From: an uncultured delta proteobacterium
Lineage (GTDB): Bacteria; Myxococcota_A; Polyangia; Palsa-1104
Reading direction: 5' to 3'
NCBI GenBank assembly: GCA_963785725.1
Contig: CAWAWS010000004.1
Location: forward strand, 32,001-96,000
DNA length: 64,000 bases
The position numbers and the translations under genes were made by a program. Below, in pieces: positions 8,647-35,143 of this stretch; positions within the stretch are counted from its first letter, which is position 1, and each line of letters starts with the position of its first letter. Under the pieces are notes generated by a model. The model searched no databases and was not told where the DNA came from. It was given only the letters and a program-made list of their open reading frames with translations.

Positions 8647-9321
8647 CTATTCCGACAGCAGCCAATCCAGCGACGGGACCACGAGTCGCCGCTTGATGAC
8701 CTTGACGAGCCCTTTTTGCTGCAGCACGCCGATCGCCCGCGTCACCTTCTCGCGGCTGGCGCCGGCCAGATCGGCGAGCGTCCGGTGCGTCAGATCGAGC
8801 GCGACCTCGATGCCCTCTTCGCGCGGCTGACCCCAACGCTCGGCCAAGAGCAAGAGCACCGACTTCAGGCGCGCCTCGGTCGTGTAGCGCGAGAGCATGC
8901 GCACGAGGCGCCACGCGTCTTCTATCCTACGCGCCATCTGCTGCATGAGCCCGCGCTGCAGCTGCGGATGCTCGGCCAGCAGCTTCTCCCAATCCTCGCG
9001 CGGAATGACCAAGATCTTCGACGGCAACAGCGTCGTACAGGTGGCGGTCACTTGGTTGCCGTGGAACTGCTCGAGCTCGCCGAAGAGATCGCCCGGGCCG
9101 TGCAGCGCCAGGATGACCTCTTTGCCTTCGGGCGTAATTTGCGACTCTTTGACGCCGCCTTCACGGATGAGATAGACCGAGCGCGCCGGCTCGTTGGCGC
9201 GCACGATGGTGGCGCCGCGGCTCAGGCTCTGCTCGGCGGCGCCGGCGAGGCTGAACATCGCCGGCTCGTCGAGCTCGGCAAACAGAGGCATTCCGCGGAG
9301 AGTCTCGATGTCGACGGTCAT
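8647..9321 (-). CDS. Crp/Fnr-family transcriptional regulator
   Basis: PLFAEL, GPGDLFGE, LTHRTLADLAGASREKVTR HTH. Confidence 0.92.
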   Translation of the reverse strand: MTVDIETLRGMPLFAELDEPAMFSLAGAAEQSLSRGATIVRANEPARSVYLIREGGVKESQITPEGKEVILALHGPGDLFGELEQFHGNQVTATCTTLLPSKILVIPREDWEKLLAEHPQLQRGLMQQMARRIEDAWRLVRMLSRYTTEARLKSVLLLLAERWGQPREEGIEVALDLTHRTLADLAGASREKVTRAIGVLQQKGLVKVIKRRLVVPSLDWLLSE

Positions 9322-10589
9322 GGCTTCAGCTCCATCAGTAGGGTTTCGATCTCGGCCACCTTTGCGTCCCAGCTTTCGTGCGCCATCGCGTTCGATCGCG
9401 CGCGGTCGGGGCCGGATCCCGCGGCCAGCGCCTCGCCGACGCGGGTGACGAACGCATCGGCTCCGTCGGCGAGGTAGACCCCGTAGTCGGCGACGGCGAC
9501 CGCCTCGGGGATATCGGTCGAGACCACCGGCAAACCGGCGGCCAAATATTCGCGTAGCTTGAGCGGATTGGCGTTCTCGGTGAGCGCGTTCTTCACGAAG
9601 GGCAGGAGCGCGACGTCGAACGCTTTGCAATAGCCGGGCAGCGACGCATACGGCTTGCGGCCGACGAAGTGCACGTTCGCCTTGGCCTTCAGCTTCTCGA
9701 TGCCCGCTTTGTCGGCGTTGTTGTGCTCGCCGACGATGATGACGCTGCCGTGCGGATAGGCGTCGGCCACCTTGGCCATCGCCTCCAAGTCGACCCACTC
9801 GGCGACGAGCCCGTAGAAGCCGAAGCGCGGCCGCGGCAAATCTTTGACGTCGGCCGGAATCTCCGTCCCCGAGTCGAGCGCCTTGGCGAAGTGGTGCTGC
9901 TCGACGCCGTGACGAATCAGGTGCGTATTGCCGTTGAGCTTCGCCTTCGACTGCTGCAGCGGCGTCGAGCAGGTGATGACGAGGTCGCTCTTGCCGATCA
10001 GCTCCGCTTCCAGCTTCGCGATGTCGTCGCCGGCGCCGGCGAACTGCGCGTACTCGTCGACGCAGTGGTAGACCACGTGCCGGCAGCCGAGCGAGCGCGC
10101 CACCCACGCCGACGCGGGCACGAACGTGTACAACAGCGGATCGTCGAAGCCGAGCGCCCGCATCGCGCCGCGCACGGTCAGGCCGACGGTGATCTCGTTG
10201 ATCGCGCGCGCCCAGCGCGCCTGATAGTTCGGCACCGCCAGCGGCGTAATCGTGTAGATGTTCTCGGCCACTTTGACCGGGCCCGCCGTCAATTGCCCGG
10301 CGAACTTCTTCAGCTTGTCGAAGATGCGGCCGAGATCGCGCGCCGTCGCCCGCGGCGCGCGGTTGCCGAGCGAGTTCACCCACAAGACGCGGTTGTGCTT
10401 CGCCAGCCGCGTCATGACGTGCTTCTTCGACAGCGGATCGCCCGACCAATCGTTGGCGAAGCAGACGATGTCGCGCCCGACCAGATGCGGCTGGCGCGCG
10501 TTCGCCGACGATTGTGCGGTCGCGCTGAGTAATTGTGCGTCCGCATCAAGCAGTTGTGCGTTTGCACCATGAGCCGCTGCAGTCGACAT
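9318..10589 (-). CDS. Glycosyltransferase (GT4-like)
   Basis: VYHCVDEY, HGVE, FDVALLPF, NPLKLREYLAAGLPVVST. Confidence 0.9.
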   Translation of the reverse strand: MSTAAAHGANAQLLDADAQLLSATAQSSANARQPHLVGRDIVCFANDWSGDPLSKKHVMTRLAKHNRVLWVNSLGNRAPRATARDLGRIFDKLKKFAGQLTAGPVKVAENIYTITPLAVPNYQARWARAINEITVGLTVRGAMRALGFDDPLLYTFVPASAWVARSLGCRHVVYHCVDEYAQFAGAGDDIAKLEAELIGKSDLVITCSTPLQQSKAKLNGNTHLIRHGVEQHHFAKALDSGTEIPADVKDLPRPRFGFYGLVAEWVDLEAMAKVADAYPHGSVIIVGEHNNADKAGIEKLKAKANVHFVGRKPYASLPGYCKAFDVALLPFVKNALTENANPLKLREYLAAGLPVVSTDIPEAVAVADYGVYLADGADAFVTRVGEALAAGSGPDRARSNAMAHESWDAKVAEIETLLMELKP

Positions 10590-12511
10590 CAGGCGACCTC
10601 CGACAACGGCTCGGGACGCGGGCGCGCCTCGGCGCTGAAGTTGCGATGCCACAGCTCGAGCACGACCAGCGGCCACAGCTCGGCCGACAAGTCGGCGCCC
10701 GCCTGATGGCGATCCCACAGCCGATGCAAGAACGGCGTGTCGAAGCGTTCGTTGGCCAAGGAGCGGCGATCGAAGAGCGCGGCCTCGGCCATGTCGCGCA
10801 TGCCGCCGCGCAGCCACGCCGCCGTCGGCGTGCCGAAGCCCATCTTGGGACGGTCGAGCACCGCTTGCGGCACGCGACCGCGCGCCGCTCGCCGCAAGAG
10901 CGCCTTGCCGACGCCGCCCGCGATCTTCATGTGATCGGGCAGCGCCCACGTGTGCTCCATGAGCTCGTGATCGAGGAAGGGGACGCGCAGCTCGATCGCG
11001 TGCGCCATCGTCATCTTGTCGGCTTTGACCAAGAGATCGTCGGGCAGCCACACTTTGCCGTCGAGATAGAGCATGCGGCGCAACGGCGTCATGCCGCGCG
11101 TCGCTTGCCAGTGCGGCGCGAGCAGCGAATGCAGCACGTCCGAGGCGTCGGAGCCGTGCGCGTGCGGCTTGTAGAGCCGCTCGACCGCGTCGTCGTCGAA
11201 GGCGCGCGAGACGCCGCGATAGCTCGTCTCGAGCGTGCCCGCGCACAGCCGCGCCGCGCGGCGCAGCTTGTCCGACGGCAACTTGGCTCCGAGGCGGCCG
11301 AGCAGCGACAAGGCGGCCGAGCCGGCGCCGAGCCGCGCGCGCAGCTGCTCCATGCGCTGCATCTTGCGGTAGATGGAGTAGCCGCCCATCGCCTCGTCGG
11401 CGCCTTCGCCCGAGAGCACGACGGTGACGTGCTGCTTGGCCGTCTGCGACAGGAAGTAGAGCGGCACGCAGGCGGCATCGGCCACCGGCTCGTCGAGGTG
11501 CCAGACGATCTTGGGCAGCGCGTCGGCCGCCTCTTTCATCGTCACGCGGCGCTCGTGATGCTCGGTGCCGAGCGCGTTCGCGGCCAGGCGCGCGTAGGCC
11601 AGCTCGTCCTCGGATTGCGCGGCGTCTTCGGCGTAGCCGACGCTGAAGGTCTTGAGGGCGCCGCGCGCGTCGGCGGCGCGCAGCATCGACGCCGTGATGA
11701 ACGTCGAGTCGAGCCCGCCGGACAAGAACGCGCCCACCGGTACTTCGGCCATCAGGCGCAGCTCGGTGGCGTGGTCGATGCGCTGCTGCAGCTCGTTGGC
11801 GGCTTCGGCTTCCGTCGGCGGCGTGGCGTCGCGCGTCGCCACGTCCGACAAGTCCCAATAGCGCGACAGCGTCACGTTGCCGCGCTGCCACGTCATCACG
11901 GTCGCCGGCGGCAGCTTCTTGATGCCGCGAAACATCGTCAGCGGCGCCGGCACGTAGCGCAGGGCGAGATAGGCGGCGAGCGCGTCGTCGTCGACGGCGC
12001 CGTCGACCTGCGGCACGGCGAGCAGCGACTTCACCTCGGAGCCGAACACCAAATCGCCGCCGAGCTGCGCGTAATAAATCGGCTTGATGCCCATGCGGTC
12101 GCGGACGAGGACGAGCTTCTTGGCGCGGTCGTCCCAAATGGCGAAGGCGAACATGCCGCGCAGCTTCTTCGGGCAGTCGACGCCCCACTCTTCGTAGGCG
12201 TGGACGATCGCTTCGGTGTCGGAGTGGGTGCGGAACTTATGGCCACGCGCGACCAGCTCGCGGCGCAGCTCGACGTGGTTGTAGATCTCGCCGTTGAACA
12301 CGATCCAGACGGTGTCGTCCTCGTTGGCGAGCGGCTGGCGGCCGCCGGCGAGGTCGATGATGCTCAAGCGGCGATGGCCGAGCCCGACCTGCGTGCGCAG
12401 GTGGTAGCCATGGTCGTCGGGACCGCGATGGGCGATCAGCTCCGTCATGCGGAAAATTTCTGCACGATCGACGGGAGCGGTCTGATTTACGCGGCCGGCA
12501 ATGCCACACAT
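10589..12511 (-). CDS. asnB: Asparagine synthase-family glutamine amidotransferase (copy 1)
   Basis: MCGI, HRGPD, RLSIID, FNGEIYN, LSGGLDS, LSGEGADE, RVPFLD. Confidence 0.95.
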   Translation of the reverse strand: MCGIAGRVNQTAPVDRAEIFRMTELIAHRGPDDHGYHLRTQVGLGHRRLSIIDLAGGRQPLANEDDTVWIVFNGEIYNHVELRRELVARGHKFRTHSDTEAIVHAYEEWGVDCPKKLRGMFAFAIWDDRAKKLVLVRDRMGIKPIYYAQLGGDLVFGSEVKSLLAVPQVDGAVDDDALAAYLALRYVPAPLTMFRGIKKLPPATVMTWQRGNVTLSRYWDLSDVATRDATPPTEAEAANELQQRIDHATELRLMAEVPVGAFLSGGLDSTFITASMLRAADARGALKTFSVGYAEDAAQSEDELAYARLAANALGTEHHERRVTMKEAADALPKIVWHLDEPVADAACVPLYFLSQTAKQHVTVVLSGEGADEAMGGYSIYRKMQRMEQLRARLGAGSAALSLLGRLGAKLPSDKLRRAARLCAGTLETSYRGVSRAFDDDAVERLYKPHAHGSDASDVLHSLLAPHWQATRGMTPLRRMLYLDGKVWLPDDLLVKADKMTMAHAIELRVPFLDHELMEHTWALPDHMKIAGGVGKALLRRAARGRVPQAVLDRPKMGFGTPTAAWLRGGMRDMAEAALFDRRSLANERFDTPFLHRLWDRHQAGADLSAELWPLVVLELWHRNFSAEARPRPEPLSEVA

Positions 12512-12577
12512 TGCGGGTCTCCTTGGCGAAGCACGAGGCTCACCGGGTCACCAACGACACCGTGCGAGCGATACTGG

Positions 12578-13621
12578 TTAGCGTGCTGTTGCGAGAGACG
12601 TGCCGTTCGTGACGGCCGCGCCCATGTGGCGATAGAGGTCGAGCAGCTCGGGTAAGCAGTCCAGCTGAGGCATGAATTCAGGCAAACGCTTGTCGACGGC
12701 GAGGAAGATTTGTTCCGCGCACGCGGACGAATCGCCGGCCGGGAAACCCAAGATGCCGGCCGGTCGCGCGCCGACCAGCGAGGCGACGACCGGTCGGTGG
12801 AGGGCCAAGGCCTCGCGCACGCTGATGGCGTCGCCGTCGGCGAGCGTCGGGCGCACGAAGACGTCGGCGGCGGCGGCCACGGCCAAGGCGCGCTCGCGCG
12901 GCAACTCGCCCAAGTGGTGCACGCGGCCGGCGAGCCCGCGGGCCTGCACGGCGGCGACGAGGGCGGGCGCGCGCGTACCCGGCCCGTACACGACGAGTCC
13001 GGCGTCCGGGCGCTTCTTGCACACCAGCGCGAAGGCGTCGAGCAGGCAGTCGGCGCCGTATTCGACGCCGTGCGCGAGCATGCAGGCCACGAGCAGCGAA
13101 TGGGCGCGCCGCAGCTGCGTCAGCCCCGACGGCGGCAGGCGAAAGCTCAGCGACGAAGGCGTAAACGCCGCGCAGAGGCTGAGGTGGTCGGCGGCGACGC
13201 CGGCGGCGACGAGCGCGGCGGCGATCTCGGCGTTGACGGCGATGACGCGCGTGTACAGCCGACAGATGTAGCGCGTCCACGTCGCATGGGCGCGGATGAA
13301 GTCGGGCGCCAGCCCCGAGTGCAGCGTCAACAGCGACGGGCCGAGGTGGCCGGCGGCGCAGAGCGCGGCCAGCGTCCAGCTGCCGCGGTTGTGCCCGTTT
13401 GTGTGCACGTGGATGAGGTCGCGGCGCAGGCGCGCGCGCGCCAGCTTGGCGAGCAGGCGCGGGCGGCCGTCGCGACCGTCGGGGCCACGGCGGCGCGGAT
13501 CGACGATCTCGGCCGGCAACCCGGCCGCTTCCAACGCGCGTGCGAGCTCGAGGCAGTGCGTGGCGACGCCGCCGGCGGGCGGCGGCAGCGCGCCGACGAT
13601 GAGCGCGGCCGTCGCGGTCAC
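12578..13621 (-). CDS. Glycosyltransferase family 4
   Basis: PPPAGGVATH, ADVFVRPTLADGDAISVREAL. Confidence 0.85.
   Translation of the reverse strand: MTATAALIVGALPPPAGGVATHCLELARALEAAGLPAEIVDPRRRGPDGRDGRPRLLAKLARARLRRDLIHVHTNGHNRGSWTLAALCAAGHLGPSLLTLHSGLAPDFIRAHATWTRYICRLYTRVIAVNAEIAAALVAAGVAADHLSLCAAFTPSSLSFRLPPSGLTQLRRAHSLLVACMLAHGVEYGADCLLDAFALVCKKRPDAGLVVYGPGTRAPALVAAVQARGLAGRVHHLGELPRERALAVAAAADVFVRPTLADGDAISVREALALHRPVVASLVGARPAGILGFPAGDSSACAEQIFLAVDKRLPEFMPQLDCLPELLDLYRHMGAAVTNGTSLATAR
12590..12605 (-). promoter_or_regulatory. Candidate internal sigma-54 promoter for asnB copy 1
   Basis: CGGCACGTCTCTCGCA. Confidence 0.5.
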
Positions 13622-14886
13622 GCCGATGACATATCGGCCGAGGCGTAGGGCCGATCGTGCGCGCCGACGAGCGAGTCATACAGCGACACGACCGTGCGGC
13701 ACATCTTCTCCAGCGAATACTGCGCCTCGACGTGCTGGCGACCGCGCAAGCCCATGACGTGACCGGCGAGCGGATTGCCGAGCGCGCGCGCGATGGCGTC
13801 GGCCAGCTCCGCCGGCTTTCGCGGCTCGACGAGGAAGCCGTGCACGCCGTCGGTCATGACCTCGGGGATGCCGCCGACGCGCGTGGCGACGACGGGCCGC
13901 GCCGCGCACATCGCCTCCAAGACGGCGTTGGGGAAGCCTTCGGACCACGACGGATGCACGACCAAGTCGGCGCGCGACAGGATGCTGGGCACGTCGTCGC
14001 GGCGGCCGATGAAGACGACGTCGTCGCCGAGGCCGAGCGTGCGCGTTTGCGCTTCCAGCGCCGGCCGGCACACGCCGTCGGACACGAGGATCCACTGCGC
14101 GCGAATGCCTTTGGACTTGAGCAGCGCCGCCGCCTGCAACAGATCGCCGTGGCCTTTGTCGGGCAGATGCATCGAGCCGACCGTGACGACGCGCGGCAAC
14201 GCCACCGGTGCCGCCGGCAGCAGCGGCTCGGGCGTCTTGAACGCCTGCAGATCGAAGTGCGCCACGTCGATGCCGTTGTGAATGACGTGCATGGCCGCGT
14301 GATCGACGCCCAACTCGCGCTCGGTCTGCTTGGCGACGGCGCTGGCGTTGGCGATGACGACGTCGGCCATCTTGCACGCGAAGCGCAGCGCCTTGCGCTG
14401 CGTCGGGTTGAGCCAATGCGCCAAGTCGCGACGGCTGGCGATGCTCTTGGCGCCCGCCAAACCGGCGGCGGCGACGCCGATCAGGTTCGAGTAGAAGTCG
14501 TGCGCGTGGATGATCTTGATGTTCTCGCGCCGGCACATGAGCGCCATGCGCGCGATTTGGTAGCCGGTGTTGGCCTGTGCCAGCGAGCCGCGCAGCGGGA
14601 ATTCGATGGGCGGCAGCCCGATCTCGACGAGCCGTGGATAGAGCTCGCCGCCCTGCTTGAAGCAGGCGACGAACGGGCGATAGCGCCGGCGGTCGATGCG
14701 GCGCAAGAGCTCGAACAGCTGCCGCTCGGTGCCGCCGACGTTGAGGCAGTCGACGACGTGCAAGACGCCGAGCGGCTGCGCGCCGCCGCTGCCGCCGGCC
14801 ACCTTCGTTTGGTCGTACGTCGCCGAGTGAAACGGATCGTGCGCGCGATGGCGAATCCCCGGCGCATACGAGACGAGGTCACCCAT
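13618..14886 (-). CDS. Glycosyltransferase family 4
   Basis: GGTERQL, IHNGID, PSWSEGFPNAVLEAM, GGIPE. Confidence 0.92.
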   Translation of the reverse strand: MGDLVSYAPGIRHRAHDPFHSATYDQTKVAGGSGGAQPLGVLHVVDCLNVGGTERQLFELLRRIDRRRYRPFVACFKQGGELYPRLVEIGLPPIEFPLRGSLAQANTGYQIARMALMCRRENIKIIHAHDFYSNLIGVAAAGLAGAKSIASRRDLAHWLNPTQRKALRFACKMADVVIANASAVAKQTERELGVDHAAMHVIHNGIDVAHFDLQAFKTPEPLLPAAPVALPRVVTVGSMHLPDKGHGDLLQAAALLKSKGIRAQWILVSDGVCRPALEAQTRTLGLGDDVVFIGRRDDVPSILSRADLVVHPSWSEGFPNAVLEAMCAARPVVATRVGGIPEVMTDGVHGFLVEPRKPAELADAIARALGNPLAGHVMGLRGRQHVEAQYSLEKMCRTVVSLYDSLVGAHDRPYASADMSSA

Positions 14887-16813
14887 GGGCGAGCTCCGGC
14901 TCGGCCGCGCCATCGAGCGCCGGCTGCGACTGATCGAGGAAGCGCCGTGCCCATAATTCGAGCGTCATCAAGCTCCAGATCGAGAGCGCGTGATCGCGCC
15001 GTCCCGTCATGTGCTCATCGACGATGGTGCCGACCGCCTGCGGATCGAGCCAACCGCGTTCACGCATGCGCTTGTCGCTAAGCAATTCCAATGCCGGCTC
15101 ACGCAACGCGCCGCGCAGCCACTTGACGATGGGCACGCCGAAGCCGCGCTTGGGTCGCTTGAGGATGTCGTCGGGCAAGAGGTCGGCGACCGCGCGCTTG
15201 AAGACGTGCTTCTGCGCGCCGTCGGCCGTCAGCTTCAGCGCCGACGGCATCGCGAACACGCGCTCGACCAGCGTGTGATCGAGGAGCGGCGGGCGCGCTT
15301 CGAGCGAATGCGCCATCGTCATGCGATCGACTTTGGTCAGGATATCGAGCGGCAGATAGGTCAGCGTGTCGAGGTAGAGCATCCGGCGCGTCAAGTCGCC
15401 GGGCGCGTGCGCCATGATGGCTTCGCGGTCGCGATGAGCATCGGCCGCGTCGAGCCCGCGCGCCGCCAGCTGCGCCTTGAGCGCGGGCGCGACGAGCCGC
15501 GCCTTGAACGGCTGCTGAAACAGCGACTCGCCGTCGACATAGCGCGCGTGCGCCGGCAGCGCGATGTGGCGCAGATAGCGCTTGCCGGGCGCGCGATCGG
15601 GCAGCTGCGCGGCGCCGAGCGCCAGGATCTTGCGCAGCGGCGCCGGCATCCAGCCGAAGCGGCGCTCCTCGCGCGCCGTCCACGCGTAGCGTTCGTAGCC
15701 GGCGAAGACCTCGTCGCCGCCGTCGCCGGAGAGCACGACTTTGACGTGCTCGGCGGCCAGCTTCGAGACGAGATAGGTCGGCACCGAGCTGACGTCGGCG
15801 AAGGGCTCGTCGAGGAACCAGGTGAGCTTCTCGGTCAGCTCCCAGGCGTCGGGGCGCACGATGAGCTCGTGATGATCGGTCTCGAACTTCTTGGCGATGA
15901 TGCGCGCGTAATCGAGCTCGTTGAAGTCGGCCTCCTCGAAGCCGATGCTGAACGTCTTGGGGCGCGCGCCGAGCTCGTGCATCGTGCCGACGATGGTCGC
16001 CGAGTCGACGCCGCCGGACAGAAAGGCGCCCACGGGCACGTCGGCGATCAGGTGCGACTTGACGGCGTCGCGCACGAGGCCGCGCACTTCGTCGATGGCG
16101 TCGCGCTCGCTGATCCGGCGCTCGGGGATGCTCGCCAAGTCCCAATAGCGGCGAATCGTCAGCTCGCCCTTGCGATAGCGCAGGAGATGGCCCGGCGGCA
16201 GCTTGCGCACGACGTCCAAGATCGACTGATCGGGCGACGTGTGGCCGAACGACAGATAGTGCGAGATCGCCGCCGGTGACACGGTTCGGCGCACGTCGGG
16301 ATGGCACAAGAGTGACTTCAGCTCGCTGCCGAACACGAGGCCGCGCGGCGTGGCGGCGTAATACATGGGCTTGATGCCGAGGCGGTCGCGGGCGATGAGC
16401 AGCGCCTGCTTCTCGCGATCCCACAAGGCGAAGCCGAACATGCCCGACAACTCGTCGACGAGCGTCTCGCCGCGCTCTTCGTAGAGGTGCACGAGCGTCT
16501 CGGTGTCGCTCGTCGTCGTAAAGGTGTGGCCGCGCGCCAAGAGGCCGTGGCGCAGCGCCTGATAGTTGTAGATTTCGCCGTTGAAGACGACGTTGTAGCG
16601 GCCGTCTTCGTTGGCGATGGGCTGCTTGCCGCCGCCGAGATCGATGATCGACAGGCGGCGCATGCCCATCGCGCACTTGCCGTCGTTGTACAGGCCGTTG
16701 TCGTCGGGGCCGCGGTGGATGATGCTGCCGTCCATCGCGTTCAAGGTGCGCTCGACGCTGCGCGGGTCGCCGAGATCACCCGAGGCGGCGACGAAGCCGT
16801 AGATGCCGCACAT
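14879..16813 (-). CDS. asnB: Asparagine synthase-family glutamine amidotransferase (copy 2)
   Basis: MCGI, HRGPD, FNGEIYN, LSGGVDS, LSGDGGDE, KVDRMTMAHSLE. Confidence 0.95.
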   Translation of the reverse strand: MCGIYGFVAASGDLGDPRSVERTLNAMDGSIIHRGPDDNGLYNDGKCAMGMRRLSIIDLGGGKQPIANEDGRYNVVFNGEIYNYQALRHGLLARGHTFTTTSDTETLVHLYEERGETLVDELSGMFGFALWDREKQALLIARDRLGIKPMYYAATPRGLVFGSELKSLLCHPDVRRTVSPAAISHYLSFGHTSPDQSILDVVRKLPPGHLLRYRKGELTIRRYWDLASIPERRISERDAIDEVRGLVRDAVKSHLIADVPVGAFLSGGVDSATIVGTMHELGARPKTFSIGFEEADFNELDYARIIAKKFETDHHELIVRPDAWELTEKLTWFLDEPFADVSSVPTYLVSKLAAEHVKVVLSGDGGDEVFAGYERYAWTAREERRFGWMPAPLRKILALGAAQLPDRAPGKRYLRHIALPAHARYVDGESLFQQPFKARLVAPALKAQLAARGLDAADAHRDREAIMAHAPGDLTRRMLYLDTLTYLPLDILTKVDRMTMAHSLEARPPLLDHTLVERVFAMPSALKLTADGAQKHVFKRAVADLLPDDILKRPKRGFGVPIVKWLRGALREPALELLSDKRMRERGWLDPQAVGTIVDEHMTGRRDHALSIWSLMTLELWARRFLDQSQPALDGAAEPELAHG

Positions 16814-16816
16814 GCG

Positions 16817-19442: not shown

Positions 19443-19464
19443 TGTACATGGTCAGGCCCTCGTT

Positions 19465-21850: not shown

Positions 21851-21853
21851 GGA

Positions 21854-23476: not shown

Positions 23477-25518
23477 TAGCGACTGAACCCCGGCACCGAC
23501 GGAACCGGCGCCCACTCGAAGTTCAAGTCGTCATCGATGCGCGTCTCGTTGTCGGCGACGAGGTCCGCGTCCGACACTTCGAGCACGGCCTCGTCCTTCT
23601 TCTTGGCGATGGCCGCGAACACCGGGTTCACGATCGACGTCTTCGGCTTCGGCTGGGGAATCGGCGGCGCCGGGATGGGCGTGTCGACCTTGGCGGTCGT
23701 CGTCTTCGTCGGCTCGCGCAGCCGCGCGTCACGCTTCGGCAGCGTCGATGCCGATGAGCCATCGCGCTGGCTCGCCGTCGAATGGCCGGCCGTCGGCAGC
23801 GCCGATGCGAAGGAGCTCCCCGTCGCCGAATTCGTGCGCGGCGACGGCGCCGCCACCGAATGGCGCCGCGGCAAGGGCGCGGATACCGAATTCGTGCGCG
23901 GAGGCGGCGCCGTGACCGAGCTGCCGGAAGCCCAATTGGGGCGCGGGGGCGGCGCAGCGACCGAGTTGCCGGAAGCCGAGCTCGTGCGCGGAAGTGGCGC
24001 CGTGACCGAGTTGCCGGAAGCCGAATTCGTGCGCGGAAGTGGCGCCGTGACCGAGTTAGCGGAAGCCGAATTCGTGTGCGGAAGCGGCGCCGCGACCGAG
24101 TTGCCTGACGTCGAATTCGTGCGCGGAAGTGGCGCCGTGACCGAGTTGCCTGACGTCGAGTTGGCGCGCGGAAGTGGCGCCGTGACTGAGTTGCCTGACG
24201 TCGAATTGGCGCGCGGAAGCGGCGCCGTGACCGAGTTGCCTGACGTCGAATTGGCGCGCGGCAGCGGCGTGGCCACGGAGCTCGCGCGCGGAAGCGGCGT
24301 GGCGGCCGAATTGGCGCGTGGCAGCGGCGCCGTGACCGAGCTGCCGGAAGCCGGATTCGCCCGCGGCAGCGGCGTCGCCTGCGAATGGCTCGGCAACGGC
24401 GTCACCTGCGAATGGCCGGGAATCGGCGTGCCGAACGCCGGCGTCACCACCGAGCCGAAGCGTCGCGTCGGCACATTGAGCTGCGGGAACGACATCTTCT
24501 TGCGCGGCGCCGTCGGCTCGTCCTTGGGCGCGAACCACGCGTTGGGATCGACGTTGCGCAGCGACTGATAGTGCTCGACCGTCTTCTGCAAGCCCTCGCG
24601 CAGTCGCACCGCCGGCGCCCAGCCGAGCACTTTGCAGGCGCGCGCGATCTGCGGGCGCGACTGCTTCGGATCCCACGGCGGCGCCGGAATGTACGTGGGG
24701 TCGATCGCCAGCCGCTTCTTGCCGCAGCACTCGAGCACCATGTTCCACAGGAAATTGACGGCCACCGCTTCGCCGGACGCGATGTTGAGCGGCTCGGCCG
24801 GCGGATCGTCGACCGTCAGCGCCGCCAGCACCGCGGCCACGACGTTGTCGACGTAGATGAGATCGCGCGTCTGCTGGCCGTCGCCGAAGAGCACCGGCGC
24901 CTTGCCGTCGAGCGCGGCGCGGATGAGCTTGGCGACGAGGCCGGCGTCGTCGCGCTCGGCGTCTTCGTCGGGCCCGAAGACGCGGAAGATGCGCAAGTTG
25001 ACGACGGGCACGCCGAACGCCTCGCGATAGACGCGGCCATATTGCTCCATCGCCAGCGCCATGACGGCTTCGGGCGTCATCGGCCGCGGCGGCAACTCCT
25101 CGTGCAAGACGAAGCCGGCCTGCTTGCCGTAGACCGACGCCGAGCCACACAAAATGACGCGAATGCGATCGCTCTTGACGACGCCGCCCGATGCTTCGGC
25201 GCGCGCATGATTGAGGATGTGCAGCGCGCCGCCGAGGTTGACGTCTTGCGCGCGAATGCAGTCGACGCCCGGCTGCACGCCGGCCAAATGCACGACCGCG
25301 GCGACGCCTTGCATGGCGCGCTGCACGGCCGCCGGATTGCGCACGTCGCCGTGCAGGAGCTCGATGCCGTCGATGGCGGCGAGACGATCGCGTTTGCCGG
25401 TCGACAGATCGTCGAGGACGCGCACGCCGTAACCGCTGGCGGCGAGCGCGCGAGCGACGTGGGAACCGATGAATCCAGCTCCGCCGGTGATGAGAACTTT
25501 GCTTCCCTGAGTGAGCAT
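23476..25518 (-). CDS. NAD-dependent epimerase/dehydratase-fold protein with repetitive C-terminal tail
   Basis: TGGAGFIGSH, DDLSTG, GDGQQTRD; catalytic YxxxK replaced by EAVMA. Confidence 0.85.
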   Translation of the reverse strand: MLTQGSKVLITGGAGFIGSHVARALAASGYGVRVLDDLSTGKRDRLAAIDGIELLHGDVRNPAAVQRAMQGVAAVVHLAGVQPGVDCIRAQDVNLGGALHILNHARAEASGGVVKSDRIRVILCGSASVYGKQAGFVLHEELPPRPMTPEAVMALAMEQYGRVYREAFGVPVVNLRIFRVFGPDEDAERDDAGLVAKLIRAALDGKAPVLFGDGQQTRDLIYVDNVVAAVLAALTVDDPPAEPLNIASGEAVAVNFLWNMVLECCGKKRLAIDPTYIPAPPWDPKQSRPQIARACKVLGWAPAVRLREGLQKTVEHYQSLRNVDPNAWFAPKDEPTAPRKKMSFPQLNVPTRRFGSVVTPAFGTPIPGHSQVTPLPSHSQATPLPRANPASGSSVTAPLPRANSAATPLPRASSVATPLPRANSTSGNSVTAPLPRANSTSGNSVTAPLPRANSTSGNSVTAPLPRTNSTSGNSVAAPLPHTNSASANSVTAPLPRTNSASGNSVTAPLPRTSSASGNSVAAPPPRPNWASGSSVTAPPPRTNSVSAPLPRRHSVAAPSPRTNSATGSSFASALPTAGHSTASQRDGSSASTLPKRDARLREPTKTTTAKVDTPIPAPPIPQPKPKTSIVNPVFAAIAKKKDEAVLEVSDADLVADNETRIDDDLNFEWAPVPSVPGFSR
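23815..24420 (-). repeat. Intragenic tandem repeat, mainly 45 bp (PLPRANSTSGNSVTA)
   Basis: About ten 15-aa units plus shorter 9-10-aa units; period 45 bp (e.g. 24121 vs 24166). Confidence 0.9.
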
Positions 25519-25554
25519 CTTCGTTGACCCTCGTCCCGACTGAACCTCTGTCTT

Positions 25555-25570
25555 TGCGCGCGATGTGCCA
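25555..25570 (-). promoter_or_regulatory. Candidate sigma-54 promoter for the epimerase-like gene
   Basis: TGGCACATCGCGCGCA. Confidence 0.6.
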
Positions 25571-25783
25571 ATCGCTCTGCTTGCCGCTGGAAGTTGCTAC
25601 GCCGTCGAAATGCCGTCGGAAAGCGCGTTCGCCGAGGTCGCTTACGCGCGTGCGGCGCGGGGGTGGAGTGGCGGGCGCGGCTAGGGCTGGGGAATGTTCG
25701 CGCGCAAGAAAACGCCGTTCTTGCGGAGTGGAAGTGGGGCGCATGAATGCGGACGATTGAGGGCGGCTGGGCGGTGGATGACG

Positions 25784-26128
25784 GGACTAAGAATCCGGAG
25801 GATGGTGGGCTCGGCGGAAATGCCCCCATCCACCCTCCCTTTATCGGGCGAGCGCGCAGAAAGTTGCGTGTCGGTTCGGCGACCCACGCAAAGCGTGTTC
25901 GAGCGGCTGCGTGGACTAAGAATCCGGAGGATGGTGGGCTCGGCGGAAATGCCCCCATCCACCCTCCCTTTATCGGGTGAGCGCGCAGAAAGTTGCGTGT
26001 CCGTTTGGTGACCCACGCAACGCGCGTTCGAGCGGCTGCGTGGACTAAGAATCCGGAGGATGGTGGGCCCGGAGAAAATGCCCCCATCCACCCTCCCTTT
26101 ATCGGCCGCCCCCGCAGAAAGTTGCGTG
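25784..26128 (-). repeat. Three tandem 129-bp-period copies of the dispersed hairpin repeat
   Basis: GGACTAAGAATCCGGAGGATGGTGGGC starts at 25784, 25913 and 26042. Confidence 0.92.
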
Positions 26129-26142
26129 CCGGCCTCCAGCCT

Positions 26143-27471
26143 CTACCGCGCCCCCCGCCCAAAAATGACGACTTTGGCCGTATGAAACAAGATCGAGCAA
26201 TCCAACAAAACGCTCAGGTGCTTGACGTACCACAAGTCGTAATGCAGCTTCTCGCGCGCCTCCTCGAGTGACGCCGCGTACGGATACTTGATCTGCGCCC
26301 ACCCCGTGATTCCCGGCGGCACCAGCGTGCGCAAGTCGTAATACGGAATCTGCACCCGCAGCTTGGCCACGAACTCCGGCCGCTCCGGTCGCGGGCCGAC
26401 GATGCCCATCTCGCCTTTCAAGACGTTCAAGATCTGCGGCAGCTCGTCGATGCGGAAGCGGCGCAAATATTTGCCGATGCCGGTGACGCGCGAGTCGTTC
26501 TTCTGCGCCCACTTGATGCCGTTGGCCTCGGCGTCCGTCCGCATGGTGCGGAACTTCATCATCTTGAAGTTGCGCCCGCTCATGCCGACGCGCTCTTGCG
26601 TGTAAAAGACCGGCCCTTTGGAGTCCAGCTTAATGATGATGGACACCAGCAATAGCACCGGCGCCGCCAAGATGAACAGCACCAGCGACGCCAGCAGCGA
26701 CACCAGCCGCCGTCCCGCCAACAGCCACGCCGGTCGCGCGAAGCCGTCGGAGAAGACGAGATCGCTCGGCTTCACCAAGTCGACGGGGATCTTCTTGAGC
26801 GCGCGCTCGGCGAAGGTCGTCGCGTCGATGACCTCGAGGCCGGCCAGGCGACAGGCCAACAGCTCGCGCACGTTGAGCCCGCGCCGATCGTCGACGGCGA
26901 CGACGATGACGTCGGCGCCGCGAGCCCGCGCCCGCGCCGCCAGCCCGCTCGTCTCGATCGCCGCCGAGCCGACGACCTCGGAGTGACCGTCGAGCCCGAT
27001 TTCGCGCTGCAAAATCGACGCGGCCTGCGTGCCTTGGCCGATGACGAAGACGCGCGCCCGCAGCGCCGCGATGCGCCCCAAGTCGGGCAGCGCCGCGCGC
27101 AAGGCCAGCGCCACCGTGCAGGCGCCGCCCAAGCCGGCGACCGCGATCGCCTTGGCCGGTGACGGGCCGGGAATGAGCAGCGTCCCCAGGCCGCAGACGA
27201 TCGTCGTCGCTCCAATCGCCTTCAAGAGGCGCGCGGCTTTCGGCGCATCTTGGTAAGCGACTTTGAAGTCGTACAAATCGGCCAAATAGAGGGCGATCTG
27301 CAGCGCTGCGGTGGCGCAGGCGGCCTCGACGACGATGCGGATCCAGTCCGCATTGGCACCGAGGCCACGCGCCACCGCCAGCGCGGTGACGATGAAAGCG
27401 GCCAGAAGGGCGAGCTGCTCGCCGACGAAGAAGCCGAGCTTCCTCGACTCGACGTACGAACGAACCGACAT
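26143..27471 (-). CDS. Polyprenyl-phosphate hexose-1-phosphate transferase (ExoE/WcaJ-like)
   Basis: N-terminal TMs, KFRTM, RFRIDELPQ, VGPRPERP, PGITGWAQ. Confidence 0.93.
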   Translation of the reverse strand: MSVRSYVESRKLGFFVGEQLALLAAFIVTALAVARGLGANADWIRIVVEAACATAALQIALYLADLYDFKVAYQDAPKAARLLKAIGATTIVCGLGTLLIPGPSPAKAIAVAGLGGACTVALALRAALPDLGRIAALRARVFVIGQGTQAASILQREIGLDGHSEVVGSAAIETSGLAARARARGADVIVVAVDDRRGLNVRELLACRLAGLEVIDATTFAERALKKIPVDLVKPSDLVFSDGFARPAWLLAGRRLVSLLASLVLFILAAPVLLLVSIIIKLDSKGPVFYTQERVGMSGRNFKMMKFRTMRTDAEANGIKWAQKNDSRVTGIGKYLRRFRIDELPQILNVLKGEMGIVGPRPERPEFVAKLRVQIPYYDLRTLVPPGITGWAQIKYPYAASLEEAREKLHYDLWYVKHLSVLLDCSILFHTAKVVIFGRGAR

Positions 27472-27477
27472 GACGGG

Positions 27478-28248
27478 TTACCTCTTGGCCGGAAGAGCTT
27501 TCTGAGCGGAGCCGTAGGGCTGGAGGCGCAAGGCCGAGGCCACGCGCGGGTCGACGTCGTTGAGGACGATGCCGTGCACGTGCACGCCGAAGAGCGCCGC
27601 AATCGCCGAGTCCACGAGCTCCTTCGCCGTGACCCCGGCGCGCACGACCATGATGGCGCCGTCGAGGTCGTGGCACAGCGTCGGCACGTCGGCCATGTTC
27701 AAGGCCGGCGGCGTATCGACGACCACGAAGTCGAAGCGCTGCTTCAACGACGCCATCAAGTCACCGAGGCGCGGGCTGTACAGCGTGTCCGACAAGTCGT
27801 CGGGCGTGTTGCCCGCCGGCAAGACGTACAGCTCGTCCGCGCCGAAGCGCCACAAACAATCCTCGATCGACGCGCGTCCGGCGACGACATCGCACAGGCC
27901 CTTCTGCGCGCGCAGGCCGAGCAGATTGGCGACGCCGGGGCGGCGCAGGTCGGCGTCGACGAGCGCGACGCGGTTGCGTCCGCCTTTGCCGAGCGCCAGC
28001 GCCGCGTTGACCGCCGTCGTCGTCTTGCCGTCGCCCGACTGCGGCGAGGTGAACGCCAGCGCCTTGAAGCCGTCGCGCGCCAGGCACTCCATGCGATAGC
28101 GCAGCACCCGATACTGCTCGGCCGCGGGCGACGCCGGATGCGTCAGGCTCACGACTCGGGTCGACTGTGCGGGCTCGTACGTCTCGGCATCCATGATGGG
28201 CGCCGCGTTGCCGTAGCTGCTCATCTCGTTGGTGATCGTCGTAGCCAT
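27478..28248 (-). CDS. Stand-alone BY-kinase, CpsD/CapB family (ExoD-like)
   Basis: AEQYRVLR, GDGKTT, DADLRRP, VVDTPP. Confidence 0.92.
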   Translation of the reverse strand: MATTITNEMSSYGNAAPIMDAETYEPAQSTRVVSLTHPASPAAEQYRVLRYRMECLARDGFKALAFTSPQSGDGKTTTAVNAALALGKGGRNRVALVDADLRRPGVANLLGLRAQKGLCDVVAGRASIEDCLWRFGADELYVLPAGNTPDDLSDTLYSPRLGDLMASLKQRFDFVVVDTPPALNMADVPTLCHDLDGAIMVVRAGVTAKELVDSAIAALFGVHVHGIVLNDVDPRVASALRLQPYGSAQKALPAKR

Positions 28249-28254
28249 GGTCTT

Positions 28255-29616
28255 CTAAGCCTCCGCCTTGGGTCCACGGGTGAACAAGCCGCCCTTGGGC
28301 ATCTCGACCCGCGGGATAATCGCCAGAATCGGCGTCGTCGCCGCGAGGTCGCCGAGCTGCTCGGGGCCACGCACCGAAGTGTCGTTGGCGTCGAGAGCAA
28401 AGCCCATGCCGAGCCCCAGCGCGAGCGCGAGCAGGATGGCGCCGAGCCCCAACAGGGGACGATTGGGCGACATCGGGTGCTGCGGAACGGAAGCGCTTTC
28501 CACAAGGTCGAAGCGCATCGCGGCAAGTCCCTTCTCAAGGCTGGCCGAGAGCTCCGCATCGCGAAGGTGGCTCAACGTCATGTTGTACTTGTCCTTCAAC
28601 CCGTCGTAGTTCGCCTGCAGCATTGCAAGGTCCTGGCCGTTGTGCGCCGTCGCGTCGACGCGGCCGCGCACGTCCGACTGACGCGAGCGCAGGCCGGCCA
28701 ACATCGCCTTGGTGCGACCGATGTCGCCTTCGAGCGCCGCCAGCTCCGGATTGTTGCGGCGGAGATGGTCATTCAAGCCACGCTCGTCCTCGAGCCGCTG
28801 GTTGTGCACGCGGTTGAGCTCGGCCTGGATGCGCTTCACTTCCGGGTTGTCCTCCGTGTACTTCGTGCGCGCCTCGTACAGCGCCGCCGACAGGTTCTCT
28901 TCCTGATGACGCAAGGGCGACATCGACGACGCGAGCAGCGCGCGGCGACGCTCCTGATCCATGTCGAGGTTGGTCGACTGGATGTTGATCTCCATCGTCG
29001 TCTGGTCGAGCGTGCGCAGATTGCCTTCCTGCTGCTCGGGCAGGGCGCCGTAGTGCTTGCCCTTGAACTCGCGCAGCTGCTTGTCGGCCACGTCCAGCTG
29101 CGGCTTCAGCGACTCGAGCTCACCCTTGAACGCGGTGACCGTCGCCGACGCCACCTCCTCGCGGTGCTCGACCTGGTGCTGCATGAACAGCTCGGCCACC
29201 TTGTTGACCACGGCGCGGGCGCGCTCGGGGTTCGGGTCGGCGTAGGTCAAGAGGAAGGTGTCTTCGCCTTCCACTTTGACGTCCATGCGCGTCTTCACGT
29301 CATCGACGACGTCGTCGATCTTCTTGCCGTGCACGAGGTCGAGCTGCTGCACCGCTTCGGTGACGATCGGCCGCGCCATCACCGACAGGCGCAGCGACTT
29401 CAGCCGTTCACCAATCTGCTCGGCCACCGTCGGCGCGACATACTCCTTGGCCGGCTGCACCTCGGCGGCGCGGATGACGGCAGCGGCTTTGTAGCCGGGC
29501 TCCACTTGGTAGATGAGCGCGGCGCTCACGCCGAGGACACCCACCATGGTGGCGATGATCGGAATCTTCCGGCGGCGGAACACGCCGCGCACTTTTGCAA
29601 ACCCAAGCTCGTTCAT
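28255..29616 (-). CDS. wzc: Polysaccharide co-polymerase, GumC/Wzc membrane part (ExoC-like)
   Basis: Two TMs flanking a coiled coil, YTEDNPEV, PMSPNR. Confidence 0.88.
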   Translation of the reverse strand: MNELGFAKVRGVFRRRKIPIIATMVGVLGVSAALIYQVEPGYKAAAVIRAAEVQPAKEYVAPTVAEQIGERLKSLRLSVMARPIVTEAVQQLDLVHGKKIDDVVDDVKTRMDVKVEGEDTFLLTYADPNPERARAVVNKVAELFMQHQVEHREEVASATVTAFKGELESLKPQLDVADKQLREFKGKHYGALPEQQEGNLRTLDQTTMEINIQSTNLDMDQERRRALLASSMSPLRHQEENLSAALYEARTKYTEDNPEVKRIQAELNRVHNQRLEDERGLNDHLRRNNPELAALEGDIGRTKAMLAGLRSRQSDVRGRVDATAHNGQDLAMLQANYDGLKDKYNMTLSHLRDAELSASLEKGLAAMRFDLVESASVPQHPMSPNRPLLGLGAILLALALGLGMGFALDANDTSVRGPEQLGDLAATTPILAIIPRVEMPKGGLFTRGPKAEA

Positions 29617-30875
29617 TGCTTTACCTCCCTCCGAGGCGGTCTAGCGTCGGCGCCAATGACCGCCAAGAGGCGGATGCCGACGATGTTTCGTGTGGTGGTC
29701 GGGAACTGCGTGATGTCGGTGCCGGCGGCGAACGCTCCCGGTCCCGCTTGTTGCCAACGCGTCGTGTAGTACGCGCCAATCCTGAAGTTGTTGATGACGC
29801 TGTAGTCGAGCATCGTGTCGACGGTGACGCCGTCGTACGACCAGGCGCCGGCGGGGCCGATGCCGTTGCGGAAGTAGCCGCCGCCGACGTGCGCATCGAA
29901 CTTGTCGAGCCAGTGGTAGCCAACCTGCGCGTAGACGGCGTCGGCCCACAACGCCGTGCCTGCGCCGGTCGCGCCGATGAGGTCGTGGTTGTACTGCGCC
30001 GAGGCGCGCCACGTCGGCGTATACCAACGCAGCAGGGTCGCGCCGCGCCAGGTGACGCCCGAATCGGTGGCGCCCGGAATGTTCACCGAGCCCTGCAACC
30101 GCTGGTAGAACAGCGGACCGGCGTCGGCGGTCCACTCCACGGTGCGGGTGAACTGATGGCGCCAGCCGACCGCTGGCGAGTACGACGCGCCGATGTCCCA
30201 GCGGTTGGCGTCGCCGTCTTGCGGACCGGCGGTGAAGAGCTGTCCGCGGCCGCCGAAGCGCAGATCGTCGTGGCGCGTGACGCGGTAATCGAAGGTGCCC
30301 TGAAAGTCGTGCTCGGCGCCGTCGTAGAGCGCGGGAAACTGCTCGCGGATCTGCGTGGCGTCGTACTGATCGAACTGCGCCCAGTGATAGGTGTAACCGA
30401 GGCCGCCGTAGAGCCGGCGCGTGAACTCGGCCGTCGCCGCCGCGTCCACGATGTTGTCGAAGATGCCGATCTGCGGCGCCACGACACCGAGGCGCGACAG
30501 GAAGCCGGGATCCTCGGCGCGGGCGAACTCGTCGGCCACCTTGAGCGTCGTGTGTTGGGTCGGGTGACCCTCCAGGCTCAACGCCGCGCGGTGGTTGATC
30601 GAGTTCTCGGCCTTGCCGAAGGCGTAGGTCCAATAAGCGAAGTCATAAGAGGTGTCGAGCTCGATGCGCGGATCGATCAGCCGATAGGCGAAGCTCGGCT
30701 GAATGCGATTGACGAAGTCGGGCCCGCGGCTGTTGTAGACGTTGCCGTCGTATGCGCTGTCGATTCCTGCCGACAAAGACAGCTCATTCTTGGCCTCCGC
30801 GAGCGCGGTCGACTGACCGGCCACGAACGTCGACGTGGCCAGGGCCAGCGTCGCTATGTAGCGCGCGCGGCTCAT
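29613..30875 (-). CDS. Outer-membrane beta-barrel protein (ExoB-like)
   Basis: Signal peptide, YDGNV, aromatic alternating strands; lies between OPX and co-polymerase. Confidence 0.75.
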   Translation of the reverse strand: MSRARYIATLALATSTFVAGQSTALAEAKNELSLSAGIDSAYDGNVYNSRGPDFVNRIQPSFAYRLIDPRIELDTSYDFAYWTYAFGKAENSINHRAALSLEGHPTQHTTLKVADEFARAEDPGFLSRLGVVAPQIGIFDNIVDAAATAEFTRRLYGGLGYTYHWAQFDQYDATQIREQFPALYDGAEHDFQGTFDYRVTRHDDLRFGGRGQLFTAGPQDGDANRWDIGASYSPAVGWRHQFTRTVEWTADAGPLFYQRLQGSVNIPGATDSGVTWRGATLLRWYTPTWRASAQYNHDLIGATGAGTALWADAVYAQVGYHWLDKFDAHVGGGYFRNGIGPAGAWSYDGVTVDTMLDYSVINNFRIGAYYTTRWQQAGPGAFAAGTDITQFPTTTRNIVGIRLLAVIGADARPPRREVKQ

Positions 30876-31444
30876 TAGGGCACGAAGACGGTGTCACCAG
30901 GGACGAGCTGGATGGCCTGCGCTTTACCGCTGACGACTTCGCGGTAATTGACGTTGTAGCGCGCCTCGTGCCCTTCATCACCGTGACGAATGACGACGAT
31001 GCCACCGCGGTTCGCCCACTCGGTGGGGCCGCCCGCCATCGCCAGCGCCTGCAGGACATCGGTCTCGCCGCGCACGGGGTAGGCGCCCGGGTGCGTGACT
31101 TCGCCGAGCACGAAGAACTTGGCGGCGTTGACCTCGGACACCATGACGGCGACGACGGGGTCGTTCACCATGGGCGCGAGGCGCGTCGTCACTTCCTTCT
31201 GCAGCTCCTTGGCGGTGCGGCCTTCGGCGACGACGTCACCGATCATCGGCAGCGTGATCTTGCCGTCCGGCCGCACCGGCACCTTGGCCGACAGCGCCGG
31301 GTCCTTCCAGACCTCGACGGCGACGACGTCTTCCTTGCCGAGGCGGTACTCCGCCGTCGACGCCGGAGGCGGCGGCGTGGTCGAGTGCGCGCAGCCGGCC
31401 ACGAGGCCGAATGCTGCGAGCGCATATCCAATCGTTTTGCTCAT
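30875..31444 (-). CDS. wza: Short OPX polysaccharide export lipoprotein (ExoA-like)
   Basis: Lipobox LVAGC, VRPDGKITLP, GEVTHPG, QALAMAGG, LVPGDTVFVP. Confidence 0.92.
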   Translation of the reverse strand: MSKTIGYALAAFGLVAGCAHSTTPPPPASTAEYRLGKEDVVAVEVWKDPALSAKVPVRPDGKITLPMIGDVVAEGRTAKELQKEVTTRLAPMVNDPVVAVMVSEVNAAKFFVLGEVTHPGAYPVRGETDVLQALAMAGGPTEWANRGGIVVIRHGDEGHEARYNVNYREVVSGKAQAIQLVPGDTVFVP

Positions 31445-31489
31445 GGTCGAGTTCTCCCAGGCTTGGGGTTGCTGATGGGCGGACGACAA

Positions 31490-31505
31490 AGCAGTCGCTG
31501 TGCCA
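31490..31505 (-). promoter_or_regulatory. Candidate sigma-54 promoter of the polysaccharide operon
   Basis: TGGCACAGCGACTGCT, 46 bp upstream of the OPX start. Confidence 0.7.
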
Positions 31506-32581: not shown

Positions 32582-34358
<1,777 letters not shown>

Positions 34359-34389
34359 TCGATTTGGCTCCATTGCGGTTCCGTTGGAG

Positions 34390-34405
34390 TGCACTTCGGA
34401 TGCCA
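34390..34405 (-). promoter_or_regulatory. Candidate sigma-54 promoter of the EBP gene
   Basis: TGGCATCCGAAGTGCA. Confidence 0.6.
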
Positions 34406-34556
34406 CCTGGATGCCCTTACGTTTCCTTGCCTCGATGCCGAGCGCCGCCTCGCGCTGTGCCTGCACGCACCACTGGTAAATCGGCGATCGGCAAGCGCTG
34501 CACACCCGTGACGCGCGCGACGTACGCAGCAGGCCCGTATTCCGCTACGATACGGA

Positions 34557-34611: not shown

Positions 34612-34830
34612 ATGGAGAAGACGACCGGCGGAATCAAGACGGCGAACGGCAGCATCGCGGCACACGCCGAGGATCTGAGCGAGCAGGCCATGGCGCAGAT
34701 CGATCGGTTGCGTGAGCAGGCCGGCGAAGTCTCGGAGCGCGTCGTGGGATTCATCAAGGAGCGTCCCGGCACGTCGCTGCTGATCGCGGCGGCGGCCGGT
34801 TATCTCATCGGCCGCATGCTGCGGTCGTAA
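34612..34830 (+). CDS. DUF883/ElaB/YqjD-like tail-anchored protein
   Basis: FIKERPGTSLLIAAAAGYLIGRML; SD GAGGAG. Confidence 0.8.
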   Translation: MEKTTGGIKTANGSIAAHAEDLSEQAMAQIDRLREQAGEVSERVVGFIKERPGTSLLIAAAAGYLIGRMLRS

Positions 34831-34848
34831 GCAACCTTCAACCAGGAG

Positions 34849-35109: not shown

Positions 35110-35143
35110 CGGACTCATCGTCGGCAAATGACGTGGAACACGA

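Follow-up and report, generated by a model that had tools for sequence, protein, structure and literature searches.

We analyzed a 64-kb stretch of DNA (the window: positions 32001 to 96000 of contig C4) from the genome of an uncultured bacterium of the class Polyangia (G000; 8.89 Mb, 47 contigs, 88% complete). Sixteen polysaccharide genes and a gene for a Crp/Fnr regulator lie in a row on its minus strand (Table 1), and by sequence comparison this cluster is an orthologue of the Exo pathway for the major spore coat polysaccharide (MASC) of Myxococcus xanthus. The initial annotation, made from the letters of the window, had listed these genes in this order and called them mostly abutting; 15 of the 16 junctions overlap or measure at most 66 nt. 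The sole larger gap (624 nt, from the priming transferase gene to the epimerase-like gene) holds three copies of a 129-bp repeat and a second sigma-54 box. As that annotation had also stated, neither a wzx flippase gene nor any nfs gene was found within the window; it had overlooked an ActB-type activator gene, the sigma-54 box ahead of exoA and a heparinase-like lyase gene. An open reading frame of 600 aa (8647-10449) was rejected as a gene, being a frame artefact over the last glycosyltransferase (GT) gene and the crp gene. Because related genomes share the gene order at 47-91% identity, the block is neither a chance arrangement nor a chimeric assembly. Among the closest loci, L002, L004 and L032 bear the title 'Polyangia bacterium'.

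Table 1. Features in and around the cluster, in window positions. RBH, reciprocal best hit with the protein of Myxococcus sp. Y35; OPX, outer-membrane polysaccharide export; BY, bacterial tyrosine; REP, repetitive extragenic palindromic.
Feature	Position	Strand	Evidence or remark
ActB-type sigma-54 enhancer-binding protein, upstream of exoA	32582..34420	-	one frameshift near 33694
Sigma-54 -24/-12 box ahead of exoA	31490..31505	-	motif score
ExoA, short (D1D2) OPX lipoprotein	30875..31444	-	PF02563 and SLBB; RBH 47%
ExoB, putative outer-membrane beta-barrel partner	29613..30875	-	RBH 24%, 66 bits
ExoC, polysaccharide co-polymerase	28255..29616	-	TIGR03007 156 bits, below cut-off; RBH 31%
ExoD, stand-alone BY kinase	27478..28248	-	TIGR01007 above cut-off; RBH 44%
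ExoE, priming phosphoglycosyl transferase	26143..27471	-	PF02397; RBH 44%
REP-like hairpin repeat, three tandem copies, 129-bp period, between exoE and pseudo-epimerase gene	25784..26170		
Second sigma-54 box, ahead of pseudo-epimerase gene	25555..25570	-	51-52 nt before start
Pseudo-epimerase in exoF slot	23476..25518	-	SDR domain, GxxGxxG, no YxxxK
ExoG, GNAT (Acetyltransf_6)	21854..23479	-	RBH 43%; start uncertain
ExoH, DegT-family aminotransferase	20624..21850	-	RBH 44%
ExoI, GNAT (Acetyltransf_6)	19465..20631	-	RBH 40%
ExoL, polysaccharide deacetylase	18105..19442	-	PF01522; RBH 39%
ExoJ, Wzy polymerase	16817..18184	-	PF04932; RBH 33%
AsnB1, glutamine amidotransferase	14879..16813	-	domain search; tree
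ExoK, GT4	13618..14913	-	RBH 42%
ExoO, GT4	12578..13621	-	RBH ~40%
AsnB2, amidotransferase	10589..12511	-	groups with Myxococcia exo-cluster AsnB
ExoP, GT4	9318..10589	-	RBH 51%; ExoP tree
Crp/Fnr regulator	8647..9321	-	domain search; kept at cluster end in family f1
Heparinase II/III-like lyase	5146..7176	+	domain search; travels with cluster
Further REP-like hairpin copies	32166-32243 (upstream of exoA), 35202-35280, ~39929-40253		

Relationship of the cluster to the Exo pathway

Myxococcus sp. Y35 (G001) served as the reference, with its loci named by gene order and by the locus list of bioRxiv 10.64898/2026.08.28.747804. The best match in the source genome of each of Y35 ExoA-E, G-L, O and P falls in the cluster. 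Reciprocally, when the 13 Exo-family proteins of the window were compared with the fetched Exo, exopolysaccharide (EPS) and biosurfactant polysaccharide (BPS) as well as lipopolysaccharide (LPS) loci of Y35, all 13 matched the Exo copy first; ExoE, for example, scored 293 bits with the Exo copy versus 180 with the LPS and 129 with the EPS copy. By sequence match the short OPX protein ExoA and its neighbor ExoB are present, and so are the ExoC co-polymerase with the stand-alone ExoD kinase and the ExoE priming transferase, the ExoG-ExoH-ExoI modification trio, the ExoJ Wzy, the ExoK, ExoO and ExoP GTs and the ExoL deacetylase. A genome-wide search located the flippase missing from the window on another contig: the best match of Y35 ExoM lies at C26:104.3-105.8 kb, falls in the ExoM clade at 100/100 and adjoins a GT gene and a double-GNAT gene. 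This flippase locus (C26:98.9-109.3 kb, L137) is flanked by two MMPL/HpnN-like resistance-nodulation-division transporters.

We also considered that a cluster of the PEP-CTERM/XrtA type, or of the EPS or BPS type, might merely resemble exo. XrtA-system NCBIfam models were top-scoring for several of the genes, but all stayed below their cut-offs (TIGR03013, 388.9 versus 393.35), and no exosortase (PF09721) was found in any of five genomes searched, which included relatives 99% and 100% complete; the exosortase link was therefore rejected. An EPS or BPS identity was rejected because the reciprocal best hits go to Exo. The source genome carries a separate BPS-like system on contig C39, and no EPS-pathway orthologues were evident in it with the Y35 EPS loci as queries. 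This alternative is thus largely refuted, and we regard it as very improbable. Taken together, the 13 reciprocal best hits, the ExoM-clade flippase, the separate BPS-like system and the lack of an exosortase in the genomes searched identify the cluster, at the level of sequence, as an orthologue of Exo/MASC, the spore-coat kinship that the initial annotation had proposed.

Consolidated layout in comparison with known clusters

The initial annotation had singled out the gathering of the pathway into one block. A contiguous MASC cluster is described for Anaeromyxobacter sp. Fw109-5 (PMC7310880). ExoH matched 159 of 251 genomes of the class of Y35, the Myxococcia (G682, which is unpublished, is among the 159). 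We hand-picked ten of the matching genomes for long contigs and mostly lower scores; exoL directly follows exoI in nine of them, exoF is kept in six, and Wzy or Wzx lies inside the block in several. Consolidation as a novelty was therefore rejected, and the exoL-exoI adjacency in nine of the ten suggests that it is the split layout of M. xanthus that is likely the derived one.

With the M. xanthus Exo/MASC/SPS system (exoA-I, exoJK, exoL-P) the window cluster shares the 13 orthologues, the order of A-E and G-I, the short OPX protein with its barrel, the co-polymerase with a stand-alone BY kinase, the sigma-54 box ahead of exoA and an ExoM-clade flippase in the genome. It differs in forming one block where M. 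xanthus has three, in having a pseudo-epimerase where M. xanthus has ExoF, in adding two AsnB genes, Crp and the lyase, and in its off-site flippase, and a search of the source genome found no orthologue of ExoN, Nfs or MrpC. The clusters of Fw109-5 and of the Myxococcia genomes (G632, G653, G847, G673, G755, G004, G005) have the same consolidated layout, with an actB-type gene next to exoA in most and AsnB2 or the lyase in some of the latter. They belong to the other class, no gene for the pseudo-epimerase, AsnB1 or Crp was found among them, and exoF and exoM often lie inside the block.

The description of the pathway as chemically expanded holds in part. AsnB2 is common to some Myxococcia exo clusters (it groups with the AsnB of G004, G005, G755 and L067; Shimodaira-Hasegawa-like approximate likelihood ratio test, 100), the lyase gene stands beside the cluster in family f1 and also in G673, L067, L072 and L078, that is, in both classes, and the catalytic residues are missing from the epimerase-like protein. 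AsnB1, in contrast, is order-specific: like the pseudo-epimerase and Crp it was found only in clusters of this order, although it is absent from one f2 cluster. A literature search found no report of this cluster variant, though exo surveys across myxobacteria or tables of Myxococcota metagenome-assembled genomes (MAGs) may list it. Separately, a short contig titled Candidatus Binatia (L076), by its title outside Myxococcota, carries GNAT-DegT-GNAT-AsnB in the exoG-H-I order.

Promoter boxes and the ActB-type activator

Of 25 loci drawn from the two classes, 24 have the sigma-54 box ahead of exoA at a score of 5 or more out of 7, and 18 score 6; among 7407 upstream windows the background was 5.8% (at least 5) and 1.4% (at least 6), and the loci include kin and are not independent. 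The second box is found in 5 of 11 loci, all of them closest relatives. Because it precedes the pseudo-epimerase gene, the block is likely to comprise two transcription units in this genus. With at least two probable sigma-54 units and an off-site flippase locus, the pathway is likely not the one unit that the initial annotation had proposed.

The activator gene of the window has a frameshift, which is likely an assembly error, since the gene is intact in the related genomes G008 and G015 and frameshift-like breaks occur in 6 of 35 compared loci of the source genome (including rpoB and, on C9, gltD/gltC), which point to indel errors in the assembly. The intact G015 copy is the reciprocal best hit of an enhancer-binding protein encoded in an act-type operon of Y35, at E 1.9e-150 versus 9e-107 for the next Y35 match. 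From the layout of this operon (a GGDEF gene, the enhancer-binding protein gene and an epimerase-GNAT gene) we take the Y35 protein to be ActB. An ActB-type gene lies directly upstream of exoA in eight of the ten hand-picked Myxococcia. The gene actB is described as a starvation-induced gene for an enhancer-binding protein (PMC9765219).

Near the activator gene, two RpoH-type sigma factor genes and small YtxH/DUF883 stress genes (34612-36791, 54356-55210) are conserved neighbors in family f1. One of these sigma factors is the second-best match in the source genome (46%) of a Y35 protein that is presumably SigB-like. Contig C2 carries an intact paralogue of the activator, with the activator and sigma pair duplicated at C2:150.5-153 kb.

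A pseudo-epimerase in the exoF slot

The epimerase-like protein keeps the GxxGxxG motif and has ExxxA in place of the catalytic YxxxK of active extended SDR UDP-sugar 4-epimerases. We examined the best 120 of 1968 homologues, the top 98 of which are at least 49% identical to it. Of these, 97 align at the Tyr site, and neither the Tyr nor the Lys occurs in any of the 97. YxxxK is present in 18 of the 22 lower-ranked matches; the remainder comprises two fragments and a pair of divergent members without the Tyr. The loss of YxxxK from the window copy and from all 97 aligned close homologues leads us to predict that the protein is inactive as a standard epimerase. Family members also share a linker of low complexity and, in 10 of 11 tails, a conserved WAPVP peptide at the C-terminus. 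In the window copy the linker is a Pro/Ser/Thr repeat, expanded by a 45-nt tandem repeat (23830-24390) to a length of some 350 aa, which exceeds that in the relatives examined. A role in nucleotide-sugar binding or as a scaffold, replacing the UDP-GlcNAc-binding ExoF, may be inferred. No report of such a pseudo-epimerase was found in a literature search.

Distribution, a paralogous cluster and origin

Among 301 genomes of the Polyangia, 8 contained ExoH, all in families f1 and f2, and a search found the ActB-type activator in 8 of 201, a lower bound owing to a stricter first look in that search; these are the same eight genomes. Both genes are missing from four f1 genomes and one f2 genome of these samples. 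A phylum-wide ExoH search (2 of 351) was set aside, as its sample was apparently skewed to small genomes and away from large families. The order comprises 42 genomes in three families, and because none of them resembles a finished isolate genome, it is apparently uncultured, in agreement with the surmise of the initial annotation that the lineage may not be known to sporulate.

In a quick RpoB tree (69 rows; two f1 rows partial, one misplaced), the class of the source genome stood apart from Myxococcia and its order was nested within the class. A quick tree of up to eight concatenated Exo proteins (35 rows) recovered f1 and f2 as clades at 100 each and joined them at 100, outside the Myxococcia rows, which fits vertical descent within the order.

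ExoP-like GTs at about 42% occur in families f16 (31 of 39) and f11 (8 of 42). They group with a second, paralogous cluster, a separate clade at 100/100 in the ExoP tree, which is also present on contig C14, so that the source genome holds both clusters. The paralogous cluster has ExoA-, ExoE-, ExoJ- and ExoP-like genes at 26-45% identity; unlike the window cluster it lacks ExoG/H/I and has another gene order. Its locus at C14:173-198 kb (L142, L143) is an exo-related Wzx/Wzy cluster with WecB-like, deacetylase-like and small carrier-protein-like genes. In the text of Fig. S6 of PMC9601211, available without its columns, OPX tags of Haliangium, Minicystis and Sorangium follow in the run after ExoA. 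Exo-like matches in Polyangia are thus already in print, but we infer that these entries probably belong to the C14-type paralogue. ExoA-like best matches in other Polyangia are thus likely paralogous, which matters when sporulation potential is scored in MAGs.

Outside the Myxococcaceae, exo and nfs are reported as partial or sporadic (bioRxiv 10.64898/2026.07.10.737566). Compared with several losses, transfer of the pathway from stem Myxococcia seems slightly the more parsimonious course. The ExoP tree, which lacks an outgroup, places all 14 Polyangia rows on one side of a branch and does not decide between transfer and retention. Resolution is poor in both the EpsZ-rooted ExoE tree and the ExoA tree, and they do not decide the origin.

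Predicted pathway and the nature of its product

In M. xanthus, MASC is made only in development (PMC12288465). For the window cluster we favor, with somewhat better than even confidence, a sigma-54-driven, starvation-induced, chemically modified polysaccharide coat laid on resting cells that have no true Nfs machine. In favor of this reading stand the orthology to Exo, the sigma-54 box, the co-occurrence with the ActB-type activator and its linkage to exoA, and the RpoH-type sigma factor and stress genes nearby. By analogy with Wzx/Wzy pathways, ExoE would prime undecaprenyl phosphate, and ExoK, ExoO and ExoP, perhaps with the C26 GT, would extend the repeat unit, which ExoH would aminate and ExoG and ExoI acylate. 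The C26 flippase would flip the unit, ExoJ would polymerize it under the control of ExoC and ExoD, ExoL would deacetylate the polymer, and ExoA and ExoB, the latter predicted as an 18-stranded barrel (PMC9601211), would export it. Other steps are less firmly placed: the ActB-type protein may activate the sigma-54 promoter or promoters, the lyase may trim or clear the polymer, and the dead epimerase may stand in for the YvcK-like ExoF by binding a nucleotide sugar or a protein partner. The AsnB enzymes may amidate uronic-acid carboxyls, a role known for AsnB proteins in other polysaccharide systems. The polymer would be aminated and acylated, in part deacetylated and probably also amidated, and would remain on the cells as a loose coat, likely looser than one built by Nfs.

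Several findings weigh against such a coat. In the source genome, no match to ExoF (YvcK-like) was obtained by tblastn at E<=1e-4, ExoN, an O-acetyltransferase, gave only weak matches (in a genome 88% complete), and no MrpC orthologue was found (best match 32%). The Crp of the cluster, at 29% to the MrpC-like protein of Y35, was rejected as MrpC. No NfsD orthologue was found among the 42 genomes of the order, where, under a stricter first look, the best match had E 1e-67 and 27-28% over long matches; true NfsD orthologues have E 1e-161 or better and 42-66% identity. In M. xanthus, the activator shown for exoA is Nla6, not ActB (bioRxiv 10.64898/2026.08.28.747804; bioRxiv 10.1101/2023.07.26.550624). 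FruA did not turn up in the 80 kb of Y35 sequence that were fetched. Anaeromyxobacter is reported with a contiguous cluster yet without observed spores (PMC7310880, PMC2330069), A. dehalogenans in the latter source having shown no sporulation in the laboratory, and Vulgatibacter is described as non-fruiting despite full Exo and Nfs sets (PMC13689315). Finally, the lineage is known here from its genes, and sporulation would be deduced from them.

Some of these absences have counterparts elsewhere. ExoF is also missing from four of the ten Myxococcia clusters and is therefore not universal, and an ExoN-like gene adjoins the flippase in G003 (L118). Exo without an NfsD orthologue is also seen in three (G632, G653, G847) of the five Myxococcia tested, so this state has a precedent. 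An M. xanthus strain deleted for nfsA-H still forms mature spores (about 15%), whose coat is amorphous, whereas none are formed by exo mutants (bioRxiv 10.1101/2023.07.26.550624); a missing Nfs orthologue therefore does not refute a coat. The initial annotation had held that grouping with EPS, BPS or exosortase-linked clusters, together with no nfs homologues, would refute its reading. Only the second half applies: the grouping is with Exo, and no Nfs orthologue was found in the genome, only distant Glt paralogues.

The source genome has three Glt/Nfs-like D subunits, on C26, C9 and C43. In a careful tree of 18 rows, the NfsD proteins of Y35, Archangium, G004 and G005 formed a 100/100 clade that excludes all three. 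The copy on C26 belongs to a contiguous eight-gene Glt/Nfs-like operon (131.9-142 kb, L138) outside the Glt, Nfs and G4 clades. One could suppose that a full spore coat is built with a resident Glt-like system, most likely this operon, acting as Nfs. Glt and Nfs are paralogues (PMC3858216, PMC3169522), and on C26 a single run of genes resembling A, B, C, D, E, F and G lies some 27 kb from the flippase of the ExoM clade. The C26 D subunit nevertheless lies outside the Nfs clade, and C26-type matches occur in members of the order without ExoH (G011, G013), so that the operon is not co-distributed with exo; we consider this stand-in improbable. The lyase was likewise rejected as a substitute for chain shortening by Nfs, because G673, G004 and G005 have both lyase and NfsD and G632, G653 and G847 have neither in the regions searched.

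A stronger competitor to the resting-cell coat is that the orthologous pathway has been repurposed for a stress- or stationary-phase capsule or biofilm polymer in cells that never become spores or cysts. The missing Nfs and MrpC orthologues, the lack of observed sporulation in Anaeromyxobacter and the lack of evident EPS-pathway orthologues in the source genome would all agree with it, and the Crp/Fnr, AsnB1 and pseudo-epimerase peculiar to the lineage suggest a change in chemistry and control. Against it, both classes have kept the promoter box and the link to the activator, and the other polysaccharide systems of the genome (C14, C39) could serve vegetative needs. We rate it a real possibility, albeit rather unlikely.

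A bolder form of the coat hypothesis, which is tentative and which we would sooner doubt than accept, is that a dormancy cassette of activator, sigma-54 promoter and exo pathway moved as a block from stem Myxococcia to the ancestor of the two Polyangia families. It would have given coated resting cells without Nfs or MrpC, in which the dead epimerase, as a nucleotide-sugar sensor or scaffold, replaces ExoF. If this were true, exo would be a minimal, transferable spore-coat module of Gram-negative bacteria, with ActB as its ancestral dedicated activator.

What is new at this locus is the occurrence of ExoH and the ActB-type activator in the same eight genomes, from two families of one apparently uncultured order, together with the conserved sigma-54 box before exoA, the dead epimerase in the exoF slot and an exo pathway for which distant Glt paralogues were found but no orthologue of Nfs or MrpC. 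The cluster extends the true spore-coat pathway of Myxococcus beyond the class Myxococcia to an apparently uncultured soil order. Two features offer leads for M. xanthus: the link between actB and exoA, conserved together with a sigma-54 box, and the pseudoenzyme in the poorly understood exoF slot.

Other features of the window

The sequencing runs that hold the sequence are soil metagenomes, bar one run labelled 'organism A' (best share of words, 0.37). Two DNA runs cover 30 of 30 bins of the sequence in short pieces, and the contigs from two RNA runs are short and lie mostly over exoA-E; they are not evidence of transcription or its timing. The REP-like hairpin element between exoE and the pseudo-epimerase gene is about 80 bp long and dispersed, with 26 matches in the genome; a comparison with Rfam gave no credible match (one chance match). 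Near the far end of the cluster, a rubrerythrin gene and a DUF3501 gene (2712-3736) are likely an oxidative-stress pair. On the other side, an upstream conserved block (37057-62274) encodes three further sigma-54 response regulators, FtsH, a DegP-like protease and a TamA/TamB pair.

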